Shown: positions 4,439 to 63,737, counted from the first letter of the stretch. The stretch: DNA of 64,000 nucleotides from Candidatus Jorgensenbacteria bacterium GW2011_GWB1_50_10 (GCA_001004105.1 LCQK01000002.1:75419-139418); one strand, 5' to 3'. Program-made: numbers and translations. Notes: generated by a model from the letters alone, not told the origin.

Positions 4439-5551
4439 ATGTCCGTATTTTATCTTAGCAAAACGGATTTGAAAAAAATGCGCGGCAAAACCGCTCTTGT
4501 TCGGGTTGACTTGAATATTGAGCCGGGTGCTGAAAAAAATTCTTTTCGTCTGGAGGCAATTTTGCCGACAATCCGCTTTCTCCTCGCGCGAGGCGCAAAA
4601 GTTGTAATCTTAAGTCACCGCGGCAGGCCCCGCGGCCGCGATAAAAACCTTTCTTTGCGTCCATTTGCCCCGATTCTCCAAAAAGAGTTAAAACAGCGAG
4701 TTGAGTTCATGACGGTGCTACCCCGCATGATAGCACCGCAGAGGGGCAAGGTATTTCTGCTGGGAAATTTGCGTTTTTGGAAAGGTGAGGAGAAAAACGA
4801 CGTCGGTTTCGCCCGCCGGCTCGCCGCACTCGGCGATTTTTATGTGAACGACGCCTTTGCCGTCTCGCACCGCAAGAACGCATCGGTCGTCGCCATCACA
4901 AGATTTTTGCCTTCCTATGCCGGCTTGCTTTTGGAAAAGGAGATTAAAAACCTGGGTGGTATACTTAAGTATACCACCCACCCGTTTACGATAATCTTGG
5001 GCGGCGGCAAGACCTCGGATAAGCTCGGGGTGATGAATTATTTCTGGAACAAAGCCGATAACCTTCTCTTGGGCGGTGCGCCGGCAAACACGGTGTTCGT
5101 CGCTCAAAAGTTGCCGGTAGGAAATTCGTTGATTGACAGAGGTTCAACCTCCCAAATATTGAAGTTAATTCGTAAGGAGGTTGAACCTCGTAAAATTGTG
5201 TTGCCGCTTGATGTCAAAATTGCCGACAAAAAGATTCTGGATATCGGCCCGCAGACGGTTGAGAAGTACAGCAAGATAATTTCTAAATCCAGAACAGTTA
5301 TCTGGAACGGCCCGCCCGGGCTTTTTGAAAAGAAGGGATTTGAAAAAGGAACAATCGGCATCTGGCGTGCCATCTTACGAAATAGGAAAGCGAAAATCAT
5401 TGTCGGCGGCGGCGAAACAACCGCGTCTTTTTCCCTAATTCATAATTCAAAATTCATGATTCCGAAGAATATATTTCTTTCCACCGGCGGCGGCGCCATG
5501 CTGAAATTCTTATCCGGCAGAAAACTGCCCGGGATTGAGGCGTTAAAATAA
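4439..5551 (+). CDS. pgk: Phosphoglycerate kinase
   Basis: VRVDLNIEP...ILPTIRFLLARGAKVVILSHRGRP N-domain signature. IILGGGKTSDKL and C-terminal GGGETTA motifs. Note the 24-nt palindrome at 4955-4978 embedded in-frame. Confidence 0.85.
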   Translation: MSVFYLSKTDLKKMRGKTALVRVDLNIEPGAEKNSFRLEAILPTIRFLLARGAKVVILSHRGRPRGRDKNLSLRPFAPILQKELKQRVEFMTVLPRMIAPQRGKVFLLGNLRFWKGEEKNDVGFARRLAALGDFYVNDAFAVSHRKNASVVAITRFLPSYAGLLLEKEIKNLGGILKYTTHPFTIILGGGKTSDKLGVMNYFWNKADNLLLGGAPANTVFVAQKLPVGNSLIDRGSTSQILKLIRKEVEPRKIVLPLDVKIADKKILDIGPQTVEKYSKIISKSRTVIWNGPPGLFEKKGFEKGTIGIWRAILRNRKAKIIVGGGETTASFSLIHNSKFMIPKNIFLSTGGGAMLKFLSGRKLPGIEALK

Positions 5552-5576
5552 AGAGTAAATATAAATTACATCAAAA

Positions 5577-6479
5577 ATGTCATTTGAAACTTTAGAAAAA
5601 GAAGTAAAAGAATTGCCGAGAGAGTTTGAGGAAACTGGAGATACGTGTTACCTCTTAAAGGATCCAGAGAATGCAGATCGAGAATCAGCGGATGTTCTAG
5701 CAGATGTCATTGAACGCATTGATTTCAAAGCGTTGCAGAATATTTTTGAGAGCATTGCAGCTAAATCAGGCATCGACCCTTCTAAAATGAATTTCGTTGG
5801 TCCCGAAAGGTTTTATGATATGACAAGCATGTGGGATACTTTGGGGCGCTGGAATTCGGAACATAACGTGATAGCATTGAACGGATCGGCATTAAAGAGA
5901 AGTGCCGAACGTGCTGGTGTAGATACAGAACTTAGAGTTTTATCAACCCTTGTCCATGAAGAAGTGCATGCAACCTCGAGGTATAAAAGCGAAATAGTAA
6001 AGACCCAGGCAGGAGATAGAGAGAAAATTACCACTGGTTACGGTAAATATAGAAGAGGTAATCGGAGTAAGGGGTTAAAAGGCGAAGTATTCTTTGATTT
6101 GCTTAATGAAGGCGTGGTAGAACTACTGGCTAGGGAGGTTCTGTTGGAATATATCAGGACAACTGATTTTACGGATAGCCGGAAAGTGAAAGAGTTTATG
6201 GAAGCCCATGAGCAAAAACCTGAAGAAATGTCTGGGTATTGGTTGGCTATTAAATTTGTCGATGTTTTGGTCGATAAAGTAAGTGTCAAAACAGGAACAG
6301 ACAGAAACTCGGTGTGGCGATCATTTGTTAGAGGATTGTATGAAGGTGTTGATTTCGAGACAAAAGAATTTAGTCAGCCGTTTCAAGAATTATTTGGTGA
6401 AAACTTTCTGCAAAAATTATCAAAAGCCAATTTTAGTAAAGATATTGAAGCTCTCATGAAAGAACTTGAAACTCAGTAA
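5577..6479 (+). CDS. Hypothetical protein with HExxH motif (putative zinc metallopeptidase-like)
   Basis: 300-aa ORF containing VHEEVHATS (HExxH). Translationally overlaps the downstream DHH gene. Confidence 0.5.
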   Translation: MSFETLEKEVKELPREFEETGDTCYLLKDPENADRESADVLADVIERIDFKALQNIFESIAAKSGIDPSKMNFVGPERFYDMTSMWDTLGRWNSEHNVIALNGSALKRSAERAGVDTELRVLSTLVHEEVHATSRYKSEIVKTQAGDREKITTGYGKYRRGNRSKGLKGEVFFDLLNEGVVELLAREVLLEYIRTTDFTDSRKVKEFMEAHEQKPEEMSGYWLAIKFVDVLVDKVSVKTGTDRNSVWRSFVRGLYEGVDFETKEFSQPFQELFGENFLQKLSKANFSKDIEALMKELETQ

Positions 6480-6483
6480 GGAT

Positions 6484-7326
6484 ATGAAATCAATCGTTGT
6501 TTTATATCACGCAAATTGTCCCGACGGTTTCGGCGCGGCTTACGCCGCCTGGAAAAAATTCGGCAACAGAGCCGATTATATTGCCGTAAAGCCAGTCAAA
6601 CTTCCGCCGAAACATCTTAGAAACAAAGAGATTTACGTTCTGGACAGCAGTTTAAGTGCAGACGACCTGAAGCGTCTTTTGCAATTAAAGAATAAGGTGA
6701 CTATTATTGACCACCATATAAGCTCTAAGAAAGATGTAGAAAAAGCTCCTAATTACGTCTTTGACATAGAGCATTCCGGAGCGGTTCTCACTTGGAAATA
6801 TTTCCATCATAAGAAAAGAACGCCTAAATTGCTTCAGTATGTTGAAAACGGCGATTTATGGAAATTCCATCTGCCCAACAGCCAACTTTTATTAGCTTAT
6901 GTATATTCTCTGCCATATGACTTTAAGATTTGGGAAAATTTGTGCCGCGGCATGGAGAAAGCGGCCGGCCGGAAGAAATATTTAACCCTTGGTAAAATAA
7001 TTTCTGATTACAACGCCATCATTATAAAAGAAGTTGTTGATAAAGCCGAGCTTGTAAAGTTAGGCAAATATAAGGTTTTGGCAGTGAACCACTCTCTTAG
7101 AAAATTTACCGACAAAGTTGGCCATGAACTTTATCGGCGAAAACCGCCGTTTAGTATTATCTGGCACGTAGGAAAAGAAGGCATTAAAGTTTCTCTGCGT
7201 TCCAATGGTTCAGTTGATGTTTCAAAAATTGCCGCAAGATACGTTGGCGGCGGCGGACACAGGGCAGCTGCGAGCTTTACTTTGCCGAGAAATGCAAAAT
7301 TACCATGGAAAGTTCTAAAAAATTAA
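6484..7326 (+). CDS. DHH-family phosphoesterase (NrnA-like nanoRNase / pAp phosphatase family)
   Basis: HANCPDGFGAA (DHH motif I region), IIDHH (DHH motif III) and GGGGHRAAASF (GGGH motif). Start chosen at the ATG with an AAGGA RBS. The track ORF starts at 6466. Confidence 0.75.
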   Translation: MKSIVVLYHANCPDGFGAAYAAWKKFGNRADYIAVKPVKLPPKHLRNKEIYVLDSSLSADDLKRLLQLKNKVTIIDHHISSKKDVEKAPNYVFDIEHSGAVLTWKYFHHKKRTPKLLQYVENGDLWKFHLPNSQLLLAYVYSLPYDFKIWENLCRGMEKAAGRKKYLTLGKIISDYNAIIIKEVVDKAELVKLGKYKVLAVNHSLRKFTDKVGHELYRRKPPFSIIWHVGKEGIKVSLRSNGSVDVSKIAARYVGGGGHRAAASFTLPRNAKLPWKVLKN

Positions 7327-7718: not shown

Positions 7719-7724
7719 CCAGCT

Positions 7725-8496: not shown

Positions 8497-8526
8497 CGGG
8501 GTGTGGCGGAGATGTAGTAGAACCGA

Positions 8527-8582: not shown

Positions 8583-8614
8583 CTTCAATTTCTCCCATAT
8601 GGGAGAAATTGAAG
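8583..8614. repeat. Perfect 32-nt palindrome CTTCAATTTCTCCCATATGGGAGAAATTGAAG
   Basis: Read directly. Second family member at 34480-34511. Confidence 0.75.
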
Positions 8615-8644
8615 GTTTGATTTTTCTTATAGAAGGTGGTAATA

Positions 8645-9008
8645 TTGCTCTTGGTAAGTTAAGCGATAGCGCTCCGCGCAAGCGGAGTGAGGAAAGTCCG
8701 GACACTCTCTGTCGCAAGACAGATAAACAAGTAGCGGTTAACGACCGTCGTCCGCAAGGATAGAGGTGCGAGCAGTGACGCCTGATTCCGAAAGGAATTG
8801 GGGGACCCCATCCTAAGCTAGTCAGGTCCAACTCTGCGATAAGGATAAAAAAGCAGAGGTGAAACGGCTAAATCCTTACAGGGTGCAAGGCTGTGCTCCG
8901 AGTAATCGGAGAATGCCGCTTGACCCCGAGGGTAACCGAGGGGCTAGAGGAATTATCGCTAGGGTGCGCAAGCGCCCGATACAGAATCCGGCTTATGACT
9001 TACCCTAT
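8645..9008 (+). ncRNA. rnpB: RNase P RNA (bacterial type)
   Basis: P4 strands GAGGAAAGTCCGGAC and ACAGAATCCGGCTTATGAC. GGTGAAACGGC (P10/11-like). P1 pairing GGTAAGT/ACTTACC. Followed by a terminator. Confidence 0.75.
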
Positions 9009-9044
9009 CCCGCCCGTCCAATGGACAGGCGGGATTAGTTTTTA
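9008..9044 (+). terminator. Rho-independent terminator of rnpB
   Basis: CCCGCCCGTCC-aatg-GACAGGCGGG then ATTAGTTTTT. A near-identical terminator module recurs at 9719-9754. Confidence 0.7.
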
Positions 9045-13908: not shown

Positions 13909-14376
13909 TTATAGTAGCGGTTCGTATTCAAATCGGTCCTGTTTGGTCATTCCTTGGTTGTAGTAGTACCGGCCGCGAATCTTCTGTCCTGAAAAGACAA
14001 GCGGCAGCCAATCCCTGTCCGCGGCCCACATGCGGTCATATGGCGGATTGCCGATATCGTAAGGTTCGGGAGCGGCCATTTCCTCCGTCTCGCGAAATTC
14101 GCCCCGCCAATTACGGCAGAAAAAAATGTAGCACTCGAAGAGGTGAGTATCTCCCTCGAAGAAGTCAATAACCGCAACTTTTTCCAGGCCTTCTGGGGAA
14201 GTCGTAACGCCGCCTTCTTCGTTCATTTCCCGAACGGCCGTATTTTCAACCGTCGTGTCTCCGGGTTTCTTTTTTCCGCCGTAGCCGTTCAGATACCCTT
14301 TTCCGAAGCCCCGCTTCTTATTGGAAAGAAAAACGCGGCTATCCCGCACGGGAAAACAAATAGTGCTTATTTCCAT
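13909..14376 (-). CDS. Nudix hydrolase (MutT-like)
   Basis: Nudix box GGKKKPGDTTVENTAVREMNEEGG (GX5EX7REUXEEXGU). Confidence 0.7.
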   Translation of the reverse strand: MEISTICFPVRDSRVFLSNKKRGFGKGYLNGYGGKKKPGDTTVENTAVREMNEEGGVTTSPEGLEKVAVIDFFEGDTHLFECYIFFCRNWRGEFRETEEMAAPEPYDIGNPPYDRMWAADRDWLPLVFSGQKIRGRYYYNQGMTKQDRFEYEPLL

Positions 14377-14385
14377 ACCTTTTGG

Positions 14386-15147
14386 TTATAAATACCCGAC
14401 TTTTTTGAGCCAATCCACGTTCTCCCATTCCCAAAGCTTCTTCGCGCCCAAAAACGCCTCAAAGTCCTCCTGCCAGTAGGGGAATTCCTGCAGTTCTATC
14501 CGGCCTTCCACCGGCCCCCATTCGTGAGTGCACGCCTGCATGAAGGCGTTACCCCATTGGGTTTTGATTTTGTCCCGGCCGCCCTTGCTCCGCAATATCG
14601 CCCCGCAGTGGACGCAGGAACGGCTCTGGTCAATCCGCAAAATCCACCGGGTTTCCAGATTTTTCACCGCCTCTTTCATCGCCGCCATGTAAGCCGAGGT
14701 CTGGAGATTGTAGTCGCGGTAGATTTCCTGCGAGGTCTTAATGTCCAAAATGCCGAGCTTGCCGTCAATCAAGGCGATGGCGTCGAGCGTCCCGGCGTAA
14801 CGGTGTTCGTAATTTACCAGCCGTTTTTCAACGAACTGCGGGTCAACTTGAATGTGTTTGGAGAGCATGAATTCCAGGAAGGCCTTTATGGATGGCTGGA
14901 TTTGGGCGGGGATAGCCGGCTTTTCGCCGACCAGAATCTTTTCCACCGCCTCGTGGATCATCGTGCCCTCGGTTGCGGACTTTTGCTTGATTTTTTCGCC
15001 TTCGGCGAAATTATTCATCCCGGCGTAGAAGCGGTAAAGGGCCGGTTTGGACTTGATTTCCACTATTTTTGTGACGCGGGGATACCAGAATCCGTCAATT
15101 TCATAGCCGCAGAGAGATTTAAAATGCTTTTCGTCCTGGTAATACAT
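14386..15147 (-). CDS. PD-(D/E)xK-family nuclease (RecB/Cas4-like fold) with terminal Cys cluster
   Basis: GTLDAIALIDGKLGILDIKTS (D...D/E-x-K). N-terminal Cys plus C-terminal CVHCG...C...H cluster reminiscent of Cas4/AddB-type Fe-S nucleases. Confidence 0.5.
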   Translation of the reverse strand: MYYQDEKHFKSLCGYEIDGFWYPRVTKIVEIKSKPALYRFYAGMNNFAEGEKIKQKSATEGTMIHEAVEKILVGEKPAIPAQIQPSIKAFLEFMLSKHIQVDPQFVEKRLVNYEHRYAGTLDAIALIDGKLGILDIKTSQEIYRDYNLQTSAYMAAMKEAVKNLETRWILRIDQSRSCVHCGAILRSKGGRDKIKTQWGNAFMQACTHEWGPVEGRIELQEFPYWQEDFEAFLGAKKLWEWENVDWLKKVGYL

Positions 15148-15951: not shown

Positions 15952-15967
15952 CTATGACATGTCATAG
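15952..15967. repeat. Perfect palindrome CTATGACATGTCATAG
   Basis: Read directly. Shares the TATGAC-N4-GTCATA core with the palindromes at 25690, 27501 and 27926. Confidence 0.7.
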
Positions 15968-15988: not shown

Positions 15989-17380
15989 TTATTTTTTGAG
16001 CAATGAATCGGTGTAGTTCACAATATCGCCGGCGCCCATCATTACCACAATAGGGGATAGGTTATAGGTGATAGGTTTTAGGAGTTCTTTAATTTTGGTT
16101 CTGATTATTTTTGGGTTATTCAAGTAAAAAACTTTCAGCGTTTTTGCTCTTTGCGATATGCGCTTTGCGAGGTCAGCCGACGTGTAGCCCCTGTGGGGTT
16201 TGTCGCGGCCAGCGACTTGATAAATCGGCAGCAAGAACAAATAATCGGCCGAATCAAAGGCGGAAATGAAATCTTTGAACAAGTTTTGGGTGCGGTGGGC
16301 CTGGTGTGGCTGGAAGACGCAGATTATTTTCTTTTTGGGGAATTTCTCGCGGAAGGCCTGGAGAGTAGCTTTGATTTCGGTGGGGTGGTGGGCGTAGTCG
16401 TCGTAGACGGGAATTTTAGGTTGTAGGTGATAGGTTGTAGGTGATAGATAACCCCTAAATTCCATTCGGCGCCAGGCGCCGCGGTACGAGCCCAGAGCTT
16501 TCAATATTATCTGCTCTTTAATGCCGAGCGCGCGGGCGAGCGTGAAAACAGCGAGAGCATTGGAAACATTATGTTGCCCTGGGATTTTTAAAACCCTTTT
16601 TATTTTATGGTAGGCGCTATAATTAATTATAGCGCCGTACCAGATTACTTTGAAGTTTTTACGTTTTGCGATTTTTTGGATTTTGGATTTTAAACTGTGG
16701 AGGTTTTTATCATCCCGGTTCGCGATTAAAATGCCGCCGGATTTTATATTCCCGATGAATTTGAGAAATGACTTTTTGACGTTTGCTAAATTTTTGTAAA
16801 CGTCCAAATGCTCCCTATCAATGTTCGTGATGACAGCGTAAGTGGGGGAGTAGTTATGAAAAGAGGCCTTCCATTCGTCCGCTTCAAGGGTGAGGTAGTC
16901 GCTCTTGCCGTTCCGGAAATTGGAATTGCCGAACTCTTTAAGCCGGGTGCCGACGATAACCGTCGGGTCCAGACCGGTTTTCATAAGAACGAGCGAGGTT
17001 AAAGCCGTCGTCGTGCTCTTGCCGTGGGCGCCGGCAACGGCAATGGTTTTATATGCCTTAGTCAAGGCCCCAAGCATTTGGGGATAAGTGAAAGCAGGGA
17101 TGTCCCGGCGCCTCGCTCCCCTTAATTCGGGGTTTTCCGGGGTAATAGCTTGGTTATAGACGACCAAAGCGGTTTTGGGGCTGATATTGGCTTTTTTATG
17201 CCCAATTTTGAGTTTTAAGCCCTTCTTTTGGAGCTTTCGGAGTAAATCACTCGGGGCGATATCAGACCCGGAAATAGCCCAATTTTGGGCTAAAAACCAC
17301 TGCGCCAAAGCGCTAATGCCGATTCCACCCACGCCGATAAAGTGGGCCAAGGGTTTATTTAAAGGGGAGAGGTTTTTCAT
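15989..17380 (-). CDS. murC: UDP-N-acetylmuramate--L-alanine ligase
   Basis: HFIGVGGIGISALAQ, GAHGKSTTTAL, EADEW, DDYAHHPTEI. Contains embedded repeats at 16054-16084, 16415-16460 and 16613-16636. Confidence 0.85.
   Translation of the reverse strand: MKNLSPLNKPLAHFIGVGGIGISALAQWFLAQNWAISGSDIAPSDLLRKLQKKGLKLKIGHKKANISPKTALVVYNQAITPENPELRGARRRDIPAFTYPQMLGALTKAYKTIAVAGAHGKSTTTALTSLVLMKTGLDPTVIVGTRLKEFGNSNFRNGKSDYLTLEADEWKASFHNYSPTYAVITNIDREHLDVYKNLANVKKSFLKFIGNIKSGGILIANRDDKNLHSLKSKIQKIAKRKNFKVIWYGAIINYSAYHKIKRVLKIPGQHNVSNALAVFTLARALGIKEQIILKALGSYRGAWRRMEFRGYLSPTTYHLQPKIPVYDDYAHHPTEIKATLQAFREKFPKKKIICVFQPHQAHRTQNLFKDFISAFDSADYLFLLPIYQVAGRDKPHRGYTSADLAKRISQRAKTLKVFYLNNPKIIRTKIKELLKPITYNLSPIVVMMGAGDIVNYTDSLLKK
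16613..16636. repeat. Perfect 24-nt palindrome GGCGCTATAATTAATTATAGCGCC inside murC (encodes GAIINYSA)
   Basis: Read directly. Identical copy inside murG at 23222-23245. Confidence 0.85.
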
Positions 17381-17790: not shown

Positions 17791-19133
17791 TGGACAGTTC
17801 GGCTTACGGCGCCGGCTGGAATATTCGGCAAATAATCCCGCGGATTAATTGTAACACCAACCGGCACCAAACCGGCTGCCGGCGCGATGGATTTCAAACT
17901 CACGCTCGGCGTCCAGTAAAGCGTAAGGTGCAGGTGAGCGCCGTAGGAGTAGCCAGTGTCGCCGGAGTAGCCGATTGTGTCGCCTTTCATAATCCGCTCG
18001 CCTTTCTGGACGATTTGACGCGAGAGATGGGCGTAGATGCTCGTTAAACCGTTGTCGTGTTGAATCAAAACGTATTTGCCGTATTGGTATTTCAACCAAC
18101 GCGAGGTGCCACGGTCGTTGTTATCCACGGCGATGACTGTGCCGGTTTCAACCGCCATAATTGGTGTGCCGATCGGCGCCCGGAAATCAACGCCGTTGTG
18201 TGTCTTACTCCGGTATGCGCGCTGAGCGAAGGCCGTAGGGCCGAAGTCCTGCGTAAGATAGGGATTCTCCACCGGAAAACCGATAACGCCGGGACGTTTT
18301 ATCGGCAGCAAACTCGGGTCGAAAGATTTGCGGAGTTGGTCTTCATATTCGTCCATAATCTTGCTGATTTTCTCCTGCTGTTTGTCCAGTTCCGCGATTT
18401 GGGCTTGGTAGATTTTTTCCTGGTTTTTGGTTTGAGTGAGAACCGTGTTTTTGACGGTTTTCTGGGCCTGGACTATCTGCTGGCGATTCGTTAGATTGAC
18501 TCGTTCTCTTTCTTTCTGCGCCTGTTTTATCTGTTCCTCGCTTAATTTTTCCACCAAGTCCCCCTGATATTTACGGAGTTCTTCAGCGCTCGCGTTTAAA
18601 TCACTATTCAAGGTGGCGATAGATTGGGCTTCCGAGACGCTCTCGGCCAAACTCTGGTTTCGCAGGAAGATTATCAGGAAATTTTCCCGATCTTTTTGCT
18701 GGAGTTCCACCATAAGCCGCCCGATAGTCGCTTTTTTGTTGTCTATACTTTCCTCAATGCCTTTGATGTCGCCGCTTAGCGATTCTATTTCCAGCGCGAG
18801 TTTATCGAGCGTCACCTGATTCGCTTTGATGGAGAGATTAAGTTGACTGATGTTGTAGTCAATGGTTTTTAATTCCTTTTGGAGGGAACTTTTAAGAGAG
18901 CCGGTTTGTTCCAATTGTTCTTCAATCTTGGCGCGTTCCTCCATTAATTGCTGAAGCTCGGCGTTTTTGGCGTCAATCTGCGACCGTAAACTATCAGCCG
19001 TGGCGGCATTGCCGTTCCCACTCCCCTCCTCCGCGGTTTGCGAGAAGATCGGCGACGTTGAAATTAACCCGATTAATAGAATTATGAATAATGAATAACG
19101 AATTAATTTCATACCATCTCTTGAAGATAACAT
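17787..19133 (-). CDS. M23-family metallopeptidase with N-terminal coiled coil (EnvC-like)
   Basis: Long Q/E/K-rich coiled coil followed by LytM motifs: HNGVDF, TSIYAHLS, GAHLHLTL. Confidence 0.8.
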   Translation of the reverse strand: MLSSRDGMKLIRYSLFIILLIGLISTSPIFSQTAEEGSGNGNAATADSLRSQIDAKNAELQQLMEERAKIEEQLEQTGSLKSSLQKELKTIDYNISQLNLSIKANQVTLDKLALEIESLSGDIKGIEESIDNKKATIGRLMVELQQKDRENFLIIFLRNQSLAESVSEAQSIATLNSDLNASAEELRKYQGDLVEKLSEEQIKQAQKERERVNLTNRQQIVQAQKTVKNTVLTQTKNQEKIYQAQIAELDKQQEKISKIMDEYEDQLRKSFDPSLLPIKRPGVIGFPVENPYLTQDFGPTAFAQRAYRSKTHNGVDFRAPIGTPIMAVETGTVIAVDNNDRGTSRWLKYQYGKYVLIQHDNGLTSIYAHLSRQIVQKGERIMKGDTIGYSGDTGYSYGAHLHLTLYWTPSVSLKSIAPAAGLVPVGVTINPRDYLPNIPAGAVSRTVQ

Positions 19134-20794
19134 TTTTCACAGTAAACCGTTGGGAATTCCGATTCGGTATGGACGCTGTCAATTTCGGCGCCGCATTTGC
19201 CGCAGGTCCTCTTATGTAAAACGAGATGGTTGGCGATAAATTTCAGGCGTAAATGGTGCCTTTCAAATGGTGCCTCGCGCGGTATAGGCAGGTCAAACCT
19301 TCTGTAGAAAGCGAGTTCCATTGGTATAATCCGGTACGCCTTATCCGACGTTTCGCCCTTCAGCACCTTTTCAAAAATATCGTTTTTCACGTCGCGGATG
19401 TCATCTGGAATAACGTAATCCGAAAAATCGTATTTTTTGTCCGCTTCATAATCGTTCCAGTTAAATCCCCTCTTTATCGCTTCTTCTTTTGTGAGCGGAA
19501 AGTATTCGCAAGCCACCGTTTCGTTGTAGCCGTAAGGGGAAAGCTCATAAGGGAAAAACTCGCCATATTTGTAAATCCTCTCTCTTCTATCCGTATACGG
19601 TTTTTCGTTCATGTGCGCTATTATTTTCTCCCTTAATTTTTCATATTCTTCTTTGGGATATTGCTTGTTTAGGATGCAGAAGTTTTTGTTTCTCGCATTG
19701 ATGCAGCCAAAACAATCGTTGCAGTTGATGAGTAAGTGGGAATATTCAACGTTCGTTGATTCGCGGATAATGCTCGTTGAAAACTTCATATTGAAGAGTT
19801 TTTCCGAACCGGCCAAGAATTCATAGGCGAGTTCGCACCACCAAACCGAGGTGACGTCCATTGAATCTTTCACTTCCAGAGTAAAGAACATGTATTTTGA
19901 GTCCTCAGTTTTTTCCACGTTCCAGCACTCCTTGCAGTTTTTCGATTCTTTGATTTGGGTGCCGGTTACGTTTACCGATTTTTCGATGAAAGTCGCACGC
20001 TGGGGCTGGGTTTTCCAGAAAGACTCCGTCTGATCTTTGAGTTTTTTGAAATTTTTGTAGGAGCCCAGGCGATTTTCGCTCATGAATTTTTCAAATTCCT
20101 CTTTTGGAACCGGTTTGTTGAATACGTGATATTGTTTGTGCCGCAAGCCGGAGCAGCCGAAAATATTGCTGCAATTTCGGCAGTCAAAGGAAAAATAAGC
20201 GTCGCGGCAGTCGTAACAGAAAATGGAGTTAAAAACCTTGTATCCCCTCTCACTTAGAATTGTTCCGTAAGCGAACTGGCCGTTCATGTGCCAGAAATTG
20301 TCAAAGCAGTCCTTGCATTTCAGGACGTACTGATTGTAAGCGCAATCTTCGTTCAAGTGACCGCCGAAGTTAAGGTAGCAATTTTTATCGTCAAGTTCGT
20401 AATTAATCCAGGGGCTGTTGATTGAATTTTGCTGGAGGAGCGACAAGTGCGGGACGTCTTTTTGAAGTTCTTTCCATTGTTCAAAAAAAGTTTTTGAAAA
20501 ATTATATTCACGTCCATATTTCAAAGGATCCCACCCGTCCGAATAGAAGCAATCCGGGCAGTAGGTTTTGAAAGGCTTATCGGGCGAATACATGGCGATG
20601 ATTTCTTTTTTGCAAAGGTCGCAGGGGCGTTTGTAAAGACTGCGCTCGTTTCTTTGAGTAAATCTTCTCTGAAGCCGGCACTTTGGGCACCAAGTGGGTG
20701 CTGGAACATTGATTTTTTTGTAAAAATCAAAATCTTCCGCTTCTATCGTGAATTGTTGTTTGCAATTCTGACAGGTTTTGGTTTCGGCGTTCAT
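19109..20794 (-). CDS. Cys-rich protein, paralog A of an uncharacterised family (561 aa)
   Basis: N-terminus ETKTCQNCKQQF-IE-EDFDFYKKINVP-PTWCPKCRLQRR is shared with 23917..25677 and 25705..27459. Internal duplicated module C-DC...C-NCFGC-GLR-K-Y...NK-Y-KEEYEK. About 40 Cys. Confidence 0.6.
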   Translation of the reverse strand: MNAETKTCQNCKQQFTIEAEDFDFYKKINVPAPTWCPKCRLQRRFTQRNERSLYKRPCDLCKKEIIAMYSPDKPFKTYCPDCFYSDGWDPLKYGREYNFSKTFFEQWKELQKDVPHLSLLQQNSINSPWINYELDDKNCYLNFGGHLNEDCAYNQYVLKCKDCFDNFWHMNGQFAYGTILSERGYKVFNSIFCYDCRDAYFSFDCRNCSNIFGCSGLRHKQYHVFNKPVPKEEFEKFMSENRLGSYKNFKKLKDQTESFWKTQPQRATFIEKSVNVTGTQIKESKNCKECWNVEKTEDSKYMFFTLEVKDSMDVTSVWWCELAYEFLAGSEKLFNMKFSTSIIRESTNVEYSHLLINCNDCFGCINARNKNFCILNKQYPKEEYEKLREKIIAHMNEKPYTDRRERIYKYGEFFPYELSPYGYNETVACEYFPLTKEEAIKRGFNWNDYEADKKYDFSDYVIPDDIRDVKNDIFEKVLKGETSDKAYRIIPMELAFYRRFDLPIPREAPFERHHLRLKFIANHLVLHKRTCGKCGAEIDSVHTESEFPTVYCEKCYLQEMV

Positions 20795-21366
20795 ATTTTG
20801 TCAATTCTTTCGCCGCGGCCGAGGAGAAGCGCCGGATAGCCGGCATGATTTACCTCCAATGTTCCGCAGCCCAGATTTTTGAGAAAAGCTATCATCTCGT
20901 TCATTATTTCTTTATGGTCGGCGTGGTGCCTATCGCCGTAATATTCAATTTCAACGAAATCACCGAGATTTTTCACCGAATCCATTGCTATCTCGTAGTC
21001 CCTGTATCTCCAAATTTTCCGTTTTTTATCAACAACCGTCACCGGTTTGAAATTGAGATTTTCCAAAATCTTTCGCATTGTATCGATGCTCTCAATTTTC
21101 GTTTCAAATTCATCGGCGTAGAGCCCTCTCCCCTCTTTATCAAAATGCCACCGCTTGTAATTGACCGAATATTTGCCGTTGGAATCGCGGAGACGGAACC
21201 ATTCTTCAATTGGGCGCGGCGAAAGAAAATTGCGGTGAGCGGGCGTGAAATACTCGTCTACTTGATGGTTTTCCGACTCAAATTGCGCCTCTCTTTCCAA
21301 AAAATCCAAAAGCGGCTTGCTGTGCTTAAGTTTCGCCTGCAATTCAATTTCGGTTTCTTTATTCAT
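20791..21366 (-). CDS. CYTH-domain protein (class IV adenylate cyclase CyaB / triphosphatase family)
   Basis: EIE...K, WHFDKEG, YADEFETKI, VVDKKRKIWRY, DFVEIEY. Start assigned to the ATG (MNKETEIE). Confidence 0.55.
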   Translation of the reverse strand: MNKETEIELQAKLKHSKPLLDFLEREAQFESENHQVDEYFTPAHRNFLSPRPIEEWFRLRDSNGKYSVNYKRWHFDKEGRGLYADEFETKIESIDTMRKILENLNFKPVTVVDKKRKIWRYRDYEIAMDSVKNLGDFVEIEYYGDRHHADHKEIMNEMIAFLKNLGCGTLEVNHAGYPALLLGRGERIDKI

Positions 21367-21375: not shown

Positions 21376-21403
21376 ACTGAACAATTCGCGCGAATTGTTC
21401 AGT
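21376..21403. repeat. Perfect 28-nt palindrome ACTGAACAATTCGCGCGAATTGTTCAGT
   Basis: Read directly. Lies between the gltX stop and the CYTH gene start. Confidence 0.7.
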
Positions 21404-22837: not shown

Positions 22838-23920
22838 CTACTCTTTTTGAAGTATTTGGAGCAGTTTTTCGGCGATTGTGGAGGCGGCATCGGGCTTGGC
22901 GAAATTTTTAGCAGCCACACACATTGTTCTGGCGCGTTTTTTGTCCTTCATAATTTTTTCAATTTCGGTTTTCATGGTCGGCCAGTTTAAATTGTTTTCT
23001 TCCACAACGATTGCCGCGCCGGTTGCGGCATATTCGTAGGCATTCGCTTTTTGATGATTACTTGCCGATTCTTCTATCGGAATGAGGATAGAGGGTTTGC
23101 CGAAGGCGGCGATTTCAAAAATAGCGGCGGCCCCAGAGCGAGAAATTACCAAAGCGGTTTCCGAAAGTGCCTGCCCCAATTCCGCCGCGTTCAAAAAAGC
23201 CACCGGCCGGTAGTTTTTGGTGGCGCTATAATTAATTATAGCGCCTGAATTATTCTCTCCGGTTTGATGGATGACTTTACCGAATTTCAACAACTCTTTG
23301 AGGTTCGTGGAAATAAATGAATTGATGCGGGTTGCGCCCTGTGAACCGCCAAGGATAAGAATAGACATTCCAACATTCTTAAGAATGTTGGAATGTTGTG
23401 GGTTTGTTGCTTTCTCTACGAGTTCGGAACGGATGGGGTTGCCGACCACCTCGGTTTTGTTTTTCGGGAAATATTTAGCGGCAGCCGCAAAGGCGAGAAA
23501 TATTTTTTCGGCAAAGACGGCGGAGATGCGGTTGGTAAACCCCGGCACGGCGTCGGAGTCGTGAATCACGACCGGTATGAAAAAGCATTTGGCAGCAAGA
23601 ACGACCGGCAAGGCGCCGGGACCGCCCTTGGAAAAAACCAAACTAGGCTGCAAATAGAAAATATGGGCGATGGACTGCAAAATACTCCAGAAAAATTTGA
23701 AAATATCCGTGAAATTCTCCCAATCAAAATAGCGCCGAAACTTGCTTGAAGCAATCGGGAGAATTTTAATGCCTCTTTTTGCAAATTCGGCGTTCAAAGG
23801 GTGATTCGGACCGATGTAGAATAATTCCACCCCCCCGTTCTTTTGCAGTTCCTCCGCGACCGCAAGGAGCGGAAAAATGTGCCCTCCCGTCCCGCCCCCT
23901 GTTAATACGATTTTTTTCAT
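22838..23920 (-). CDS. murG: UDP-N-acetylglucosamine--N-acetylmuramyl-(pentapeptide) pyrophosphoryl-undecaprenol N-acetylglucosamine transferase
   Basis: N-terminal LTGGGTGGHIFPLLAVAEEL. C-terminal GASELAA-like region. 360 aa. Contains the 24-nt palindrome at 23222-23245. Confidence 0.85.
   Translation of the reverse strand: MKKIVLTGGGTGGHIFPLLAVAEELQKNGGVELFYIGPNHPLNAEFAKRGIKILPIASSKFRRYFDWENFTDIFKFFWSILQSIAHIFYLQPSLVFSKGGPGALPVVLAAKCFFIPVVIHDSDAVPGFTNRISAVFAEKIFLAFAAAAKYFPKNKTEVVGNPIRSELVEKATNPQHSNILKNVGMSILILGGSQGATRINSFISTNLKELLKFGKVIHQTGENNSGAIINYSATKNYRPVAFLNAAELGQALSETALVISRSGAAAIFEIAAFGKPSILIPIEESASNHQKANAYEYAATGAAIVVEENNLNWPTMKTEIEKIMKDKKRARTMCVAAKNFAKPDAASTIAEKLLQILQKE
23222..23245. 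repeat. Perfect 24-nt palindrome GGCGCTATAATTAATTATAGCGCC inside murG (encodes GAIINYSA)
   Basis: Identical to 16613-16636. Confidence 0.85.
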
Positions 23921-25677
23921 ACTACTTCTGCGTTATAACACTGCTCGCAGTAAATGATATCCGGCCGCTCTGGAGCATAGGAGGTTTCAAATTTATTGGG
24001 ACAATAACCCTCTTCATGAGAGTGTTTTACGGTGTTCTTGTATATGCCGTTTTCCGAGGTATCTCCTGCACATTGGCACACTCGTGCATACAACTTCGCC
24101 CGGTTTCTTTGACTGATGCGGCTCCAGTGGCGACAGTCAACGCACGTTCGAGGCGCAGGAACGCTATTTTGTTTTAAGAATTGGATCTCCTGAGGAATGA
24201 TTCGGTATGCACGGCCGCACTCCGCGCATTTTATGACTTCCTTGCTGATTTCATCAGAGATATCGGCTATGGCATCAGGTAGATCAGTTGCATTCATCGT
24301 GGTTTGGTACTCGGTGGGGCTGGGATTACTCCATCTGAAACCTTGGGCCGCCGCTTCTTCTTTTGTAAGTGGGAAATGTTCCGGCGTAATTGTTTGATCG
24401 TAGGCAAATGGAGAGAATTCCGGCGGGAAGAATTCTCCGTAGCGATATTCCCTGCCCATAGCATCTTTGTATGGCATCACATTCATATGGGCGATAATTT
24501 TTTCCCGTAAGACGAAATAATCTTCTCTCGAATATTGTTTGTTTAAAATGCAATATTTTTTATTTCGCATACCGGCGCAGCCGAAAAGATTTGAGGACGA
24601 CTTGCAAAACATGCAATATTCAAGATCGTAAGCGTTTGACCAGCATTCGAAACAAAACTTTAAACGACCTCCCTGCCAGCCGCACACAGAGCCTTCGTAA
24701 ATAAGGTCCATGCCCCAGCCAGCGATGCTTGCATCGTACGAATCTTTTCCCGGAGGCACCTGAATATATTGGCAATATTTCAAATCTTCGCCCTCGCGCA
24801 CAAGATAGCTGTTCTTCGTATTTTTTGAGTGGGTGATAAATTCACCGCTCACATTCGTGTTTTGAATGCCTTGCAAGAATTTATTCGGAAATTGAATCCA
24901 AAAACTCCGCGCTTCAAGAGAGACCCTTGAGAAACCGCTCCACGTACTAAGATTCATCGCTTTGAGTTTCGTTTCGTACTCTTCCTTCGAATACTGCACA
25001 TTGAAGATGCGGTATTTTTGCATTCTAAGATTCACGCACCCGAAGCAATCACTGCATCCCCGGCAATCTCTGGAGAACCAGACATCATTACAATCCTCGC
25101 AGCGAGACGAGAAATGGGTTTCGTAGCACTTCGTAAGCCAAAACGAACCATAACACCGTTCGCATTTCTGGAGGTGCGAGTTGTCCACGCAACTTTTACA
25201 GCTGTCTATTGCGTTCCCATAGGCGCTGTCTTCGGTGTGATTGGAATTAAACAGAAGATAACAATTTTTGAGTTCAGCCGCATTCGCTGAATATTCGCTG
25301 TTCACCATATTCAGCACGCTTGCATGTGCCTTCGGAACTTTCTTATTTAGTTCATGGAGCTGGGCCAAGAACGGACGCGAGAAATCGACTTCCTGACCGT
25401 ATTTCGCCGGATCCCAAACGTCAGTATTCCATTCCTCGTCTTTATACAGAGTATAGCCGGCTTCAGGAGGATACAAGGTCAGGATATTTTCCTGAGATAA
25501 CGCGCTTTTTCCCCGAAAGAGCTTTCTTTCGTTTCTAAATATCGCGCGCCGTTGGAACCTGCACTCCGGGCACCATGTCGGTGGAGGGACATTGATTTTT
25601 TTATAAAAATTAAAATCCTCCGGCTCTATTATGAATTGATTCTTGCAGTTCTGACAGGTTTTAGTCTCGGTATTCAT
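23917..25677 (-). CDS. Cys-rich protein, paralog B (586 aa)
   Basis: Shares the N-terminal ETKTCQNCK...CPECRFQRR and C-terminal ...YCEQCYNAEVV with paralog C. Confidence 0.6.
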   Translation of the reverse strand: MNTETKTCQNCKNQFIIEPEDFNFYKKINVPPPTWCPECRFQRRAIFRNERKLFRGKSALSQENILTLYPPEAGYTLYKDEEWNTDVWDPAKYGQEVDFSRPFLAQLHELNKKVPKAHASVLNMVNSEYSANAAELKNCYLLFNSNHTEDSAYGNAIDSCKSCVDNSHLQKCERCYGSFWLTKCYETHFSSRCEDCNDVWFSRDCRGCSDCFGCVNLRMQKYRIFNVQYSKEEYETKLKAMNLSTWSGFSRVSLEARSFWIQFPNKFLQGIQNTNVSGEFITHSKNTKNSYLVREGEDLKYCQYIQVPPGKDSYDASIAGWGMDLIYEGSVCGWQGGRLKFCFECWSNAYDLEYCMFCKSSSNLFGCAGMRNKKYCILNKQYSREDYFVLREKIIAHMNVMPYKDAMGREYRYGEFFPPEFSPFAYDQTITPEHFPLTKEEAAAQGFRWSNPSPTEYQTTMNATDLPDAIADISDEISKEVIKCAECGRAYRIIPQEIQFLKQNSVPAPRTCVDCRHWSRISQRNRAKLYARVCQCAGDTSENGIYKNTVKHSHEEGYCPNKFETSYAPERPDIIYCEQCYNAEVV

Positions 25678-25689: not shown

Positions 25690-25713
25690 GGGTGGTATGA
25701 CATGTCATACCAC
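25690..25713. repeat. Perfect 24-nt palindrome GGTGGTATGACATGTCATACCACC between Cys-rich paralogs C and B
   Basis: Read directly. Hybrid of the GGTGGTAT...ATACCACC arms and the TATGACATGTCATA core. Confidence 0.8.
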
Positions 25714-27459: not shown

Positions 27460-27500
27460 TTTATTTATTGAAATTATACCACCCAATGTTAATAACCGAT

Positions 27501-27524
27501 GGTGATATGACGCGTCATATCACC
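27501..27524. repeat. Perfect 24-nt palindrome GGTGATATGACGCGTCATATCACC
   Basis: Lies between the HTH gene stop and the paralog C start. Confidence 0.8.
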
Positions 27525-27907: not shown

Positions 27908-27925
27908 TTATTAAGTTTAACATAT

Positions 27926-27953
27926 CTGCTGATATGACGCGTCATATCAGCAG
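27926..27953. repeat. Perfect 28-nt palindrome CTGCTGATATGACGCGTCATATCAGCAG upstream of the HTH gene
   Basis: Read directly. About 19 nt upstream of the HTH start. Confidence 0.8.
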
Positions 27954-27975
27954 ATGGAGAGTGTAAATATTTAAG

Positions 27976-30792: not shown

Positions 30793-30814
30793 ATCTTAAT
30801 TATAGCAAGGAATT

Positions 30815-39178: not shown

Positions 39179-39196
39179 TAATATATTATTGAGGTA

Positions 39197-45982: not shown

Positions 45983-46017
45983 TGATTAAATTATATCATT
46001 TTTATAAGATTGGATTT

Positions 46018-49018: not shown

Positions 49019-49570
49019 ATGCGTGAAATCGAAGTGAAAATAAGGGCGGAGAACTTGAAAGAAGTTGAAAAAAAACTGCTGGATTTGGGTTGTAAGCTTT
49101 CTGAGCCTATCCGTCAGGAAGATGTCATTTATTCCTACGGCAATAGCACCTCCGAGTGGGAAGAATCAAAGGAGGGCCACATTGTTTTGCGACTGCGCCG
49201 CGAGAAAGGAAAAGCAATGTTCAACATGAAACAGCAGCGCTCGAACGAACTGGATAACATTGAGTATGAAACAGAAGTGAAAGACCCCGAAGCAATTCAT
49301 CAGATACTTTTAATCCTGGGCTATACGCCCAAAGTGGAAGTGAAGAAAAACCGCCGGAAAGGGAAATTCCATGGGTACGAAATTTGCCTGGATGAAGTTG
49401 AAAAACTAGGTTCATTCGTGGAGTTGGAAAAACTCACGGAAGACAGCGCTGACCCGGCCGAGGTACAGGAAGAACTTTTCCAAACGCTTGAATCACTTGG
49501 TCTTTCACGAAAAAACCAGGAAACGAGAGGATATGATACGCAGATGTATCAGCTCGAGCATAAGAAATAG
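49019..49570 (+). CDS. CYTH-domain protein (CyaB/triphosphatase-like), second copy in window
   Basis: MREIEVKIRA..., ...YETEV..., GSFVELE. Confidence 0.55.
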   Translation: MREIEVKIRAENLKEVEKKLLDLGCKLSEPIRQEDVIYSYGNSTSEWEESKEGHIVLRLRREKGKAMFNMKQQRSNELDNIEYETEVKDPEAIHQILLILGYTPKVEVKKNRRKGKFHGYEICLDEVEKLGSFVELEKLTEDSADPAEVQEELFQTLESLGLSRKNQETRGYDTQMYQLEHKK

Positions 49571-52135: not shown

Positions 52136-52400
52136 ACATAAATTTATTACTGCGACGATTGAGGCGCCTGGGGCTCCGTTGGCTGCTGGGGCTCCGAAGG
52201 CTGTTCTGGCTGCGGTTGCTGAGGTTCAGCAGTACCACCATCCGTCATCTCTACCATCGGGACTTTGGATTCCATCATAATAGTATGGGTGTTGGTTTTT
52301 CGAACGGCTTGCGACTATTACCGCATTTTTAACGTCCCTGAAGTCAATAAAGACCAGGGTTTTTTAATTTATCACATTACTGATATAATGTCCATAATTC

Positions 52401-53381: not shown

Positions 53382-53405
53382 GGTGGTATACATATGTATA
53401 CCACC
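53382..53405. repeat. Perfect 24-nt palindrome GGTGGTATACATATGTATACCACC (variant with CATATG centre)
   Basis: Differs from the 4955/37019/63714 copies only in the central 4 nt. Confidence 0.8.
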
Positions 53406-53891: not shown

Positions 53892-53959
53892 AAGGGTTAT
53901 TATAACAAATTTATCTTTACACTCCCCCAAGCGGGTGGTAGTGTGAGAGGTATAAAAAT

Positions 53960-62798: not shown

Positions 62799-62834
62799 AA
62801 GTTTAATTTTAAGGCTTTTTAAGAGATAAATAAA

Positions 62835-63422
62835 CTAAACTCCGGTGGGGTCGGAGAAAAAAATCCAGACAGTCTTCGCCAAAATTTTCAAATCAAACCA
62901 AAAAGATTGGTGCTCCACGTAGTAAATGTCTAACTCCAGTTCTTTCCGAAAAGGTAAGCCGGAGGCGCCGGAAACTTGGGATAAGCCAGTGAGACCGGCT
63001 TTTACAAAATACAATCCCTTGAATTCCGTGGGGTATTTTTCCATTTCCGCCGGCTCATGCGGACGGGGCCCCACGAGTGTCAAATCGCCCCTCAAAACAT
63101 TCAGAAACTGTGGGAATTCATCTAGCCGCAGTTTCCTAAGCCATTTCCCCACTCTCGTGAGCCGCGGGTCGTTTTTAATCTTAAAAAAGGGGCCATCCTT
63201 GCGTTCATTCAATCCGGCCAAGTCGCTTTTCTTGCTGTGTGCATCCTGCACCATTGTCCGAAACTTATAAACTTTGATTATTTTTCCGTTTGAAACCCTG
63301 TCCAATCTTACGAAGACCGGCAAACCCGACTCCAAAACAATCGCCAAAGCAATAAAGGGTGTGAAAGGCAGAATAAACAAAAGACCAAAAACTGACCCTA
63401 TAATATCCGAGGTGCGTTTCAT
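62835..63422 (-). CDS. Undecaprenyl-phosphate sugar phosphotransferase (bacterial sugar transferase family, WbaP/WcaJ C-domain type)
   Basis: KRTSDIIGSVFGLLFILPF, KFRTM, LDEFPQFLNVLRGDLTLVGPRP. Confidence 0.85.
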   Translation of the reverse strand: MKRTSDIIGSVFGLLFILPFTPFIALAIVLESGLPVFVRLDRVSNGKIIKVYKFRTMVQDAHSKKSDLAGLNERKDGPFFKIKNDPRLTRVGKWLRKLRLDEFPQFLNVLRGDLTLVGPRPHEPAEMEKYPTEFKGLYFVKAGLTGLSQVSGASGLPFRKELELDIYYVEHQSFWFDLKILAKTVWIFFSDPTGV

Positions 63423-63691
63423 GCTATCTCAAAATCCTTGTAAAACTTAAGCTCATCGGAATATTCCACTTCAATCTTTGTAACCTTAGCCATTTCCGGT
63501 CCGCGGCGGCACCAGTCAATGAGTTTTTTAAGATTTTCTTCGTTACCTTCGGCTTCAATACAGACCGCGCCGTCCGGTTCATTCCTAGCAAAACCATTGA
63601 GCCCAAGCTTCAAGGCCTCCTGCCGAGCCGACTCGCGGAAAAACACTCCCTGCACTTCACCGTAAACCTTAATTGTTGCGAGTTTAACCAC
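63419..63691 (-). CDS. acyP: Acylphosphatase
   Basis: VYGEVQGVFFRESARQEALKLGLNGFARN (V-x-G-x-V-Q-G-V-x-F-R signature). Confidence 0.8.
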   Translation of the reverse strand: MVKLATIKVYGEVQGVFFRESARQEALKLGLNGFARNEPDGAVCIEAEGNEENLKKLIDWCRRGPEMAKVTKIEVEYSDELKFYKDFEIA

Positions 63692-63713
63692 AAGAATTAT
63701 TTATAAAAATTGA

Positions 63714-63737
63714 GGTGGTATACTTAAGTATACCACC
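63714..63737. repeat. Perfect 24-nt palindrome GGTGGTATACTTAAGTATACCACC (intergenic copy)
   Basis: Identical to 4955-4978 and 37019-37042. Confidence 0.85.

Follow-up and report, generated by a model that had tools for sequence, protein, structure and literature searches.

The 64-kb window (the whole stretch of DNA that was analysed) from Candidatus Jorgensenbacteria, a tiny bacterium from groundwater, carries 12 perfect palindromes that lack a loop and span 24 nt or more, whereas approximately none are expected. The genome holds dozens of perfect palindromes of 24-32 nt, some of them translated within pgk, murC and murG, and their density is about one per 5-8 kb. One 24-mer, GGTGGTATACTTAAGTATACCACC, occurs identically at 4955-4978, 37019-37042 and 63714-63737, with a CATATG-centred variant at 53382-53405, and another, GGCGCTATAATTAATTATAGCGCC, occurs identically at 16613-16636 and 23222-23245. 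Neither is matched in dinucleotide-preserving shuffles, and the identical copies are not due to chance, as the original prediction had argued. Its 24-mers are present where it placed them, except that the TGACATGTCA variant lies at 25691-25714 rather than 25690-25713, and it listed seven loci, not the eight it announced. Palindromes that it lacked are found at 8583-8614, 21376-21403, 23365-23396 (the second in murG), 27501-27524 and 27924-27955. Its concern that the copies might be assembly artefacts is ruled out by three concordant independent assemblies (ENA ERZ909589, ENA ERZ27254728 and NCBI GCA_001003655.1), which are 99.9-100% identical across the palindromes. Every reading frame of the host genes is open.

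These palindromes fall into families. The S1 superfamily, GGnGnTATAnTTAAnTATAnCnCC, encompasses both of the families previously regarded as separate plus two intermediates, and these prove to be the ends of one series in which each step is a single symmetric base-pair change. Family-1 copies are located within pgk (4953-4980, perfect over 28 nt with its core at 4955-4978), between a DUF4258-like gene (37049-37366) and a 3-methyladenine glycosylase gene (36429-36989) at 37019-37042, in an intergenic region at 63713-63738 (26 nt, perfect) and, in the form with the CATATG centre, in a spacer of convergent genes at 53382-53405. The family-2 copies reside in murC (16613-16636) and murG (23222-23245). 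Families 1 and 2 are present side by side in the genome and hybrid arms are absent, which would call for two regulators or else for a constraint that ties both arms together. The S2 superfamily has the core TATGAC-NN-GTCATA, and its copies at 27501-27524 and 27924-27955 flank a gene described below; a 16-nt palindrome with the S2 core (CTATGACATGTCATAG, 15952-15967) is present downstream of murC. The TGACATGTCA variant had been placed in the S1 series, but is a member of another family, and the window contains the probable regulator gene of that family. Specifically, the palindrome at 25691-25714 joins S1 outer arms to an S2 core (GGTGGTATGACATGTCATACCACC) and is positioned 13 nt upstream of the ATG of a zinc-ribbon paralog (23917-25677). 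The S3 family has two copies in the window, namely a 32-nt palindrome between a GGDEF-gene terminator and the rnpB promoter (8583-8614) and a slightly imperfect match to it in a convergent-gene spacer (34480-34511). A 28-nt palindrome separates gltX from a lineage-specific cyaB/CYTH gene (21376-21403).

The copies have GGTGG or GGCGC heads, and the only preference seen in the flanks is a purine at -1 with a pyrimidine at +1. No direct repeats or target-site duplications were found flanking the copies, which sets them apart from MITEs with their terminal inverted repeats and duplicated target sites. The palindromes are perfectly extended in a locus-specific manner, up to 44 nt. Copies in the window lack the T-run that follows the GC-rich stem-loop of an intrinsic terminator; true GC-rich terminators with ordinary loops form a separate class. 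Gene-internal copies account for 4 of the 12 in the window and for 17 of the 79 family copies overall. Convergent-gene spacers hold a quarter of the intergenic copies, with 13 in convergent spacers versus 5 in divergent ones.

The frames and peptides originally assigned to the in-gene copies are correct: the palindrome encodes GGILKYTT in pgk and GAIINYSA in both murC (a minus-strand gene) and murG. The absence of a length change at PGK is likewise borne out, as the site aligns without gaps to PGK structures in the PDB and its length is shared by 119 of 120 relatives, such that eight codons have been replaced by the palindrome. Across lineages, this one site is occupied by all four variants (family 1, family 2, family 3-like or family 4), and its left arm resembles the ancestral codons while its right arm is derived. 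MurC is no longer than its homologs at the palindrome, and the orthologous murC site carries a variant with a diverged centre in L041, a decayed family-1 copy in L042 and family 1 in L005. The murG site shows no indel relative to orthologs, where L046 carries a family-1-like quasi-palindrome and L044 carries none. A second, family-less palindrome of 32 nt is also in frame in murG (23365-23396), and in relatives, the orthologous hairpin has changed on both arms in a compensated manner. The sites in pgk, murC and murG are kept across lineages, but the variant at each one switches in a genome-specific manner. At the intergenic site at 37019, where the gene arrangement is kept in five genomes, L041 and L042 carry family 2.

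Elsewhere, in-frame insertions are observed. MurD gains approximately 6 to 8 residues by insertion of a bare 24-nt unit, TsaD gains 6 and a glycosylase gains 18, and pgk itself carries an inserted element 'B' on the plus strand (5139-5198) composed of two GAGGTTnAACCTC hairpins around CAAATATTGA.... Thus, the Rickettsia-like in-frame insertion raised by the original prediction holds at MurD, TsaD, the glycosylase and element B, but not at the pgk, murC and murG sites for which it was raised. The copies in L168 and L169 are decaying via synonymous changes only, and other palindromes are absent from 21 kb of each.

In more than 12 genomes, palindromes flank both sides of small genes for helix-turn-helix (HTH) proteins of the Trp-repressor/YerC type, among them the ORF at 27524-27907 (minus strand) in the window. 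When ORFs near palindromes were clustered without bias, PF01371 proteins emerged from 10 loci whose sole selection criterion was the presence of a palindrome; the scores of these S1-associated proteins are 36.8 and 30.0 bits, above the Pfam Trp_repressor cut-off of 27. The palindrome ends 1 nt 5′ of the ATG in six loci, and a second copy is present 3′ of the stop codon in seven. The ORF in the window encodes a 127-amino-acid protein that is the candidate partner of S2. Its Trp_repressor score of 23.3 bits falls below the cut-off, but most of its homologs do carry PF01371, a profile search against the PDB returns 3kor (E = 1e-4), and the top Foldseek matches to its AF2 model (pLDDT 78) are TrpR-like with probabilities of 0.8-0.95. 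Directly 3′ of its stop codon is the S2 palindrome GGTGATATGACGCGTCATATCACC (27501-27524), and on the upstream side a 32-nt S2 palindrome (27924-27955) abuts the leaderless promoter (TGtTAAACT) and the ATG. These two palindromes share the core TGATATGACGCGTCATATCA, and a leaderless -10 element immediately downstream of the palindrome recurs in L086 and L173. In a blind test, the homologs L172 (63% identity) and L173 (59%) were found to be bracketed in the same way by palindromes of the same core. Moreover, the recognition helix differs with each palindrome variant and is identical for the same variant, a co-variation part of which could reflect plain shared ancestry. No regulator gene for S1 is present within the window.

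The arms of S1 also have a promoter identity. Each matches a near-consensus extended -10 promoter of the host, such that the half-site fits T-R-T-G-n-TAtaaT at all informative positions but -17. The sequence TGnTATAAT is observed 8 times versus 1.25 expected, and four of these end 7-12 nt upstream of a start codon. The rnpB promoter GGTGGTAATAT (8635-8645, plus strand) is of the S1-arm sequence type and ends about 6 nt before the 5′ end of RNase P RNA, and a solitary half-site with an extended -10 promoter (ggGTGGTATAAT, 27473-27481, minus strand) is located 13 nt before the ATG of the paralog at 25705-27459. In six genomes, the distance from the -10 element of the arm to the ATG of the regulator is 14 nt. 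The key T at -7 is missing from the CATATG variant and from the S2 core.

We hypothesize, with a probability of roughly 60%, that the palindromes are operator-type sites for dimeric TrpR-family proteins encoded in the same genomes, and that these sites have multiplied genome-wide. Among the three options of the original prediction, a protein-binding signal thus appears to be the best supported, given the bracketing of TrpR/YerC HTH genes by the same palindromes. The putative binders would be small homodimer-type proteins of at least two subfamilies, one for each of S1 and S2. Each regulator gene has its palindrome at its own promoter, a layout that is classic for autoregulation, and another copy just past its stop codon. 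Because the S1 arm is a near-consensus extended -10 element, a bound dimer would mask promoter-like sequence on each strand. The copies may have spread from this regulator core, mostly to intergenic regions and in some cases to loops of essential proteins that tolerate them and in which they are translated. Perfect symmetry could be maintained jointly by dimer binding and by template switching between the arms as the DNA is replicated, and in-gene copies could be kept by selection for binding or renewed via copying.

Proteins of the TrpR family recognize palindromes of about 20 bp whose consensus is lineage-specific (PMC9413887). Like the TrpR/HisR (YerC) repressors, the system described here combines a small PF01371 HTH protein with a dyad-symmetric site of 20-24 bp that has a TTAA-type centre, overlaps the -10 region of a promoter and follows a lineage-specific consensus. 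Unlike them, it has dozens of perfect copies per genome rather than a handful, a regulator bracketed on both sides, and copies that are translated in essential genes and that arise by insertion or by overwriting of codons. Nor is an amino-acid biosynthesis regulon evident. Indeed, the sites do not delineate any small, metabolically related regulon, as they occur in or near unrelated genes (pgk, murC, murD, murG, a glycosylase and the zinc-ribbon paralogs) and between convergent genes, where it is not obvious what an operator would control. A repressor also does not explain the 44-nt extension, the compensated 32-nt palindrome in murG or the bare 24-nt insertion in MurD.

Might the palindromes instead be selfish miniature hairpin repeats of the REP/REPIN or Rickettsia type, copied by an unseen enzyme acting on single-stranded DNA hairpins, with the HTH gene as a passenger or remnant? 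We regard this as unlikely. It would accommodate the in-frame insertions in MurD, TsaD, the glycosylase and pgk, the excess of convergent over divergent spacers, the genome-specific variants even at orthologous sites and the single-stranded hairpins, which are stable at -8 to -13 kcal/mol; a regulator between two palindromes also recalls a gene between inverted terminal repeats. However, the 64-kb window and the syntenic loci yielded no RAYT, IS200/IS605 or other transposase, the copies have neither a GTAG/CGTC head nor target-site duplications, the PGK, MurC and MurG sites add no length, the symmetry continues across the centre in a way that a hairpin does not need, and the palindrome-flanked HTH protein has no catalytic domain. 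Rickettsia palindromic elements, reportedly described by Ogata and colleagues in 2000, are said to sit in frame in protein-coding genes at tolerant sites. Like these elements, which have been reviewed elsewhere (PMC10969869), our palindromic repeats are in frame within coding genes. Unlike them (about 100-150 bp and imperfect), ours are perfect palindromes of 24-34 nt in units of 24-60 nt with unrelated sequence, several are zero-length replacements, and a DNA-binding protein family can be identified. REP/REPIN repeats are linked to a single-copy gene that they flank (PMC3116915, PMC3733652) and are similarly short, dispersed, biased toward gene 3′ ends and species-specific in consensus even at orthologous sites, but the palindromes described here are loop-less and perfect, are not strictly extragenic, and flank a gene for an HTH regulator rather than a Y1 transposase.

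Template switching is known to make and maintain perfect hairpins by homogenizing arms, introducing paired 'compensatory' changes in one event, growing outward and overwriting sequence without a change in length (PMC8794818, PMC8604942). The palindromes could accordingly be structural RNA or DNA hairpins that serve as bidirectional terminators or 3′-end protectors, perfected by this process with no sequence-specific protein. The compensated changes in murG, the ancestral-like left arm and derived right arm at PGK, and the A-run...T-run extended palindromes that embed some copies in other genomes are all consistent with this proposal. Nevertheless, template switching copies only locally, and alone could not place the same 24-mer at many loci; hairpins of this kind are quite improbable given the identical 24-mers across many loci and many genomes, the tight link to a TrpR-like gene, the promoter-grade arms, and the lack of T-runs in window copies when true GC-rich terminators are a separate class. 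The match of the half-site to an extended -10 element and the 14-nt spacing to the regulator ATG could mean that the palindromes are compact bidirectional promoters, composed of two face-to-face elements whose symmetry is a by-product. This is very improbable, since 13 copies reside in convergent spacers and 17 within genes, the CATATG variant and S2 core lack the key T, and non-critical arm positions would not stay identical through promoter function alone. We attach hardly any credence to DNA-uptake signals, homing-endonuclease or restriction targets, or an assembly artefact. Uptake sequences of Neisseria and Haemophilus are 9-12 nt long and mostly solitary. They share with the palindromes genome-specific 'dialects', inverted pairs at gene ends and permissive in-gene frames, but they are about ten times denser, and the half-site GGTGGTATAC is found only within full palindromes and never alone. 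The 10-N4-10 layout is similar to that of a LAGLIDADG homodimer target, and L042 has a free-standing LAGLIDADG gene; however, endonuclease and restriction-modification genes are absent nearby, viral contigs gave a single match, and the assemblies agree. The uptake and restriction-modification links of the original prediction are unsupported.

Bacteria of the Candidate Phyla Radiation are uncultivated and have very few regulators, and to our knowledge almost nothing is known about gene control in this group. A protein-site pair that is legible from sequence offers a biochemical handle that can be tested with purified protein. The sites in pgk, murC, murD and murG track the palindrome variant of their genome and thereby alter amino acids, which shows that, in essential enzymes, a DNA-level constraint overrides protein sequence. 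Peptides that recur, such as GGILKYTT and GAIINYSA, should be annotated with caution, as they are footprints of a DNA motif and not protein motifs. The palindromes can also serve as a lineage marker that distinguishes an active system (perfect copies) from one that has been lost (synonymous decay). More speculatively, and we consider this unlikely, the TrpR-like protein and its palindromic site may constitute a self-propagating protein-DNA pair in Parcubacteria, in which the site is actively introduced at further positions, also within essential coding sequences, through insertion or overwriting in place, and all copies are renewed jointly as the specificity of the protein drifts. If true, such a pair could represent a new type of selfish element, or a genome-wide system for organizing the chromosome or insulating transcription that is peculiar to these ultra-small bacteria.

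The 24-nt palindromes named in the original prediction are all present in the window. The sequence GGTGGTATACTTAAGTATACCACC occurs at 4955, 37019 and 63714, a CATATG-centred variant lies at 53382, and GGCGCTATAATTAATTATAGCGCC is found at 16613 and 23222. The TGACATGTCA variant is also present, but its coordinates had been placed one base off (correctly 25691-25714). Shuffled versions of the sequence yielded no match. The encoded peptides had likewise been read correctly: GGILKYTT in pgk (4439-5551, + strand), and GAIINYSA in both murC (15989-17380, - strand) and murG (22838-23920, - strand). A census of the 64 kb yields 12 perfect palindromes that have no loop and span 24 nt or more, where approximately zero are expected, including a previously unnoticed second palindrome in murG (23365-23396). 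Approximately 16 ordinary stem-loops with non-palindromic loops constitute a separate class, part of which are true terminators that are GC-rich and carry A/T runs. An AT-only 16-nt palindrome, CAATAATATATTATTG, is located at 39176-39191, exactly between the divergent DUF4015 gene (37982-39178) and dnaX (39197-40312).

The window comes from what is essentially Candidatus Jorgensenbacteria GW2011_GWC1_48_8, to judge by a PGK identity of 99%. The palindromes recur, at 99.9-100% identity, in three independent assemblies, which rules out the assembly artefact that had been raised as a concern. A near-identical strain (locus L171) shows zero variation at the palindromes, and therefore offers no view of the mutational event. 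L171 and L048, both other assemblies of this organism, carry ~115 extra nt at 1432/1433, inside the 23S rRNA gene (1-1494), that are absent from the window; either the rRNA is polymorphic for an insertion or the assemblies differ here.

A metagenome scan in which three variable pairs were left free defines four dispersed families whose flanks differ at every copy. Specifically, fam1 (GGTGGTATACTTAAGTATACCACC), fam4 (GGTGGTATAATTAATTATACCACC), fam3 (GGTGCTATAATTAATTATAGCACC) and fam2 (GGCGCTATAATTAATTATAGCGCC) form a series with one symmetric pair change per step. Because these single-pair steps connect them, the two families originally regarded as separate are really the two ends of one superfamily, which we term S1. 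The scan serves only to define this series: 51 of its 119 matches are symmetric versus 1 in 64 expected, but covariation was dropped as evidence since the count is confounded by a general hairpin background and two unrelated single-locus groups, a gut-bacterium terminator and a soil promoter. The core of a second superfamily, S2, is TATGAC-NN-GTCATA (sites at 15952, 25691, 27501 and 27924), and a third, S3, has one copy at 8583 and another, imperfect, at 34480. A promoter-like locus of the form TTGCAC...GGTGTTATAGTTAACTATATCACC-ATATG is conserved among soil bacteria (GC 0.5-0.6; L055, L060, L065 and 23 other metagenome loci). This locus has neither a downstream protein gene nor an Rfam match, and so may drive transcription of an undescribed RNA.

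When one genome per species is scanned, GGTGGTATAC-N4-GTATACCACC is found at 40 loci, nearly all in Patescibacteria MAGs from different studies. The half-site GGTGGTATAC, which is one S1 arm, has zero occurrences outside full palindromes. Many copies extend outward, with flanks that are locus-specific yet perfectly palindromic, up to 44 nt. Viral contigs gave a single match and hence no phage link, and the palindromes hit no Rfam family, whether gathering or permissive thresholds are applied. Literature matches to GGTGGTATAC are unrelated primers, and none of the papers searched links palindromes to CPR/Patescibacteria.

The arms of these palindromes match promoter sequence. Solitary copies of TGnTATAAT number 8 versus 1.25 expected, and four of them (30799-30807, 45990-45998, 52381-52389 and 53899-53907) end 7-12 nt upstream of start codons, the geometry of a leaderless extended -10 promoter. 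The organism appears to use extended -10 promoters and leaderless or very short-leader mRNAs. In addition, GGTGGTAATAT precedes the bacterial class A RNase P RNA (8651-9010, + strand; Rfam 96.9 bits against a gathering threshold of 100, E=4e-30), ending ~6 nt ahead of its 5' end, and GGGTGGTATAAT sits 13 nt upstream of the ATG of the gene at 25705-27459. The RNase P RNA stretch is 90-98% identical to that of the syntenic locus L041, whereas neighbouring genes are 75-80% identical. The promoter consensus from 78 loci is T-R-T-G-n-TAtaaT. Within the S1 half-site, the positions that never vary map to G-14, T-12, A-11 and T-7, and the variable ones to -15, -13 and -8. The 53 intergenic copies reside in 35 tandem, 13 convergent and 5 divergent spacers. 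Despite their promoter-type arms, the palindromes are more than simple promoters.

A candidate protein partner emerged when all ORFs near palindromes were clustered without prior expectation. Clustering gave a small protein family that adjoins a palindrome in every case and belongs to Trp_repressor (PF01371), with scores of 36.8 and 30.0 bits where the cut-off is 27. It is carried by 10 loci whose sole selection criterion was palindrome content. The S1 palindrome stops 1 nt upstream of the regulator ATG in six loci, and in most a second copy lies 3' of the stop codon. The recognition helix is identical in the four loci carrying fam1 with a TTAA centre, and differs wherever the palindrome variant differs.

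The window itself carries a related subfamily member, the 127-aa ORF 27524-27907 (- strand), bracketed by S2 palindromes at 27924-27955 and 27501-27524. Its Pfam score of 23.3 bits is below the cut-off, but most of its homologs contain PF01371, and some are named 'Trp family regulator' or 'YerC' by their sources. By profile search it matches 3kor, a TrpR-like structure, at E=1e-4, and the best matches of its AlphaFold model (pLDDT 78) are TrpR-like structures, with weak E-values. For an unbiased test of the bracketing, two homologs were picked by identity and contig span alone, and same-core palindromes bracket both. In L173, TTTCGCTATGACATGTCATAGCGAAA lies 31 nt upstream of the ATG and TATGACGCGTCATA 5 nt past the stop codon; in L172, the gene is flanked by three copies of a TATGAGG-N-CTCATA variant. 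The known targets of TrpR-family proteins are ~20-bp palindromes whose consensus is lineage-specific, as validated in vitro for HisR/YerC (PMC9413887).

Variants switch at orthologous positions. The murC site holds fam2 in the window, a fam2 variant with a diverged centre in L041, a decayed fam1 in L042 and fam1 in L005. At the murG site, the window, L041 and L042 have fam2, L046 is fam1-like and L044 has none, while the site upstream of a glycosylase gene is fam1 in the window and fam2 in L041 and L042. The pgk site hosts all four variants in different lineages, and most relatives have unrelated sequence there (e.g. GGVMKNPRH). Its left arm (GGIL) is ancestral-like and its right arm (KYTT) derived. 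Both arms of the murG 32-nt palindrome show paired changes in L046 and L044 that alter the encoded amino acids.

Copies in the window are all-or-none, but this was abandoned as a generalisation because L041, L042, L168 and L169 hold decayed copies. The PGK palindrome has three substitutions in L168 and one in L169, all synonymous, and neither 21-kb locus contains another palindrome of at least 16 nt. Lineages with an inactive system conserve the peptide alone, whereas the lineage of the window conserves the DNA itself. Among decayed copies, G-U outnumber A-C changes six to three, which is not significant, and so this asymmetry does not separate RNA-level from DNA-level constraint.

Whether palindromes are inserted into host genes or replace existing sequence had been left undecided; both modes occur, depending on the site. 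As originally proposed, PGK shows no length change: its alignment to solved structures across GGILKYTT is gap-free, and the length at this site is identical in 119 of 120 Parcubacteria PGKs. GAIINYSA creates no indel in MurG relative to orthologs, and the homologs of MurC are, if anything, longer than MurC at its site. In-frame insertion is seen in MurD (L012; ~6-8 extra residues) and TsaD (L086; six residues from a 34-nt palindrome), and the L041 glycosylase has an 18-codon insertion with fam2 that two orthologs are without. A second dispersed hairpin element, element B, comprises a GAGGTTnAACCTC hairpin pair (mutual reverse complements containing TAAGGAGGT) around CAAATATTGA. The window pgk contains it as an in-frame insertion (5139-5198; peptide GSTSQILKLIRKEVEPR) that shares 85% identity with a relative's intergenic copy. 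It is patchily present in other PGKs, with copies also at L042 8172-8231 and L007 1766-1814.

Several other genes are of note. Three ~600-aa paralogs (19109-20794, 23917-25677 and 25705-27459, all - strand) have treble-clef zinc ribbons at both ends. This family has 24 members in 12 loci, frequently in tandem arrays, and is missing at the same positions of L041. Its genes frequently begin 13-25 nt past a palindrome. It has no Pfam or PDB profile match, and its AlphaFold model (pLDDT 33) is unusable. The conserved 253-aa ORF 14386-15147 (- strand) has only a sub-threshold PD-(D/E)XK nuclease match; in L041 (16113-17120) one and the same palindrome, TTATAAAAGATTAATCTTTTATAA, stands on either side of it, and in L042 a 38-nt palindrome comes after it (16948-16985). 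Of two CYTH/class IV adenylate cyclase-like genes (20791-21366, - strand; 49019-49570, + strand), the former is a lineage-specific insertion relative to L041, between gltX and the next gene, and is bounded by a 28-nt palindrome at 21376. L042 carries a free-standing single-domain LAGLIDADG endonuclease gene (14237-14734) between an M23 peptidase gene and murC. The idea that palindromes are LAGLIDADG targets was rejected, given this single gene and none in the window.

The best-supported interpretation casts the S1 and S2 palindromes as putative operator-type sites of dimeric TrpR/YerC-family proteins, which would overlap promoter-grade sequence and would have been multiplied through the genome. 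This accounts for the through-centre symmetry, the promoter-like arms, the skeleton conserved across distant lineages, the genome-specific variants, the autoregulatory layout and the decay in some lineages. It leaves unexplained the way copies arise, their placement in coding sequence, the perfect arm extension past the core or the family-less palindromes. For these last two features only, the most economical addition may be template switching during replication, which homogenises arms and overwrites flanking sequence with length unchanged (PMC8794818, PMC8604942). A selfish mechanism like that of REP or RPE elements is live but unsupported, because searches of the window and the syntenic loci turned up no transposase, RAYT or nuclease.

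Each component is of a known kind, namely a TrpR-family operator, in-frame palindromic insertions and template switching. The papers searched contain nothing about such palindromes in CPR bacteria. The combination appears to be new: operator-type perfect palindromes in dozens of copies, translated inside essential genes, with variants at orthologous sites that follow the genome and a link to a small regulator, in ultra-small bacteria.
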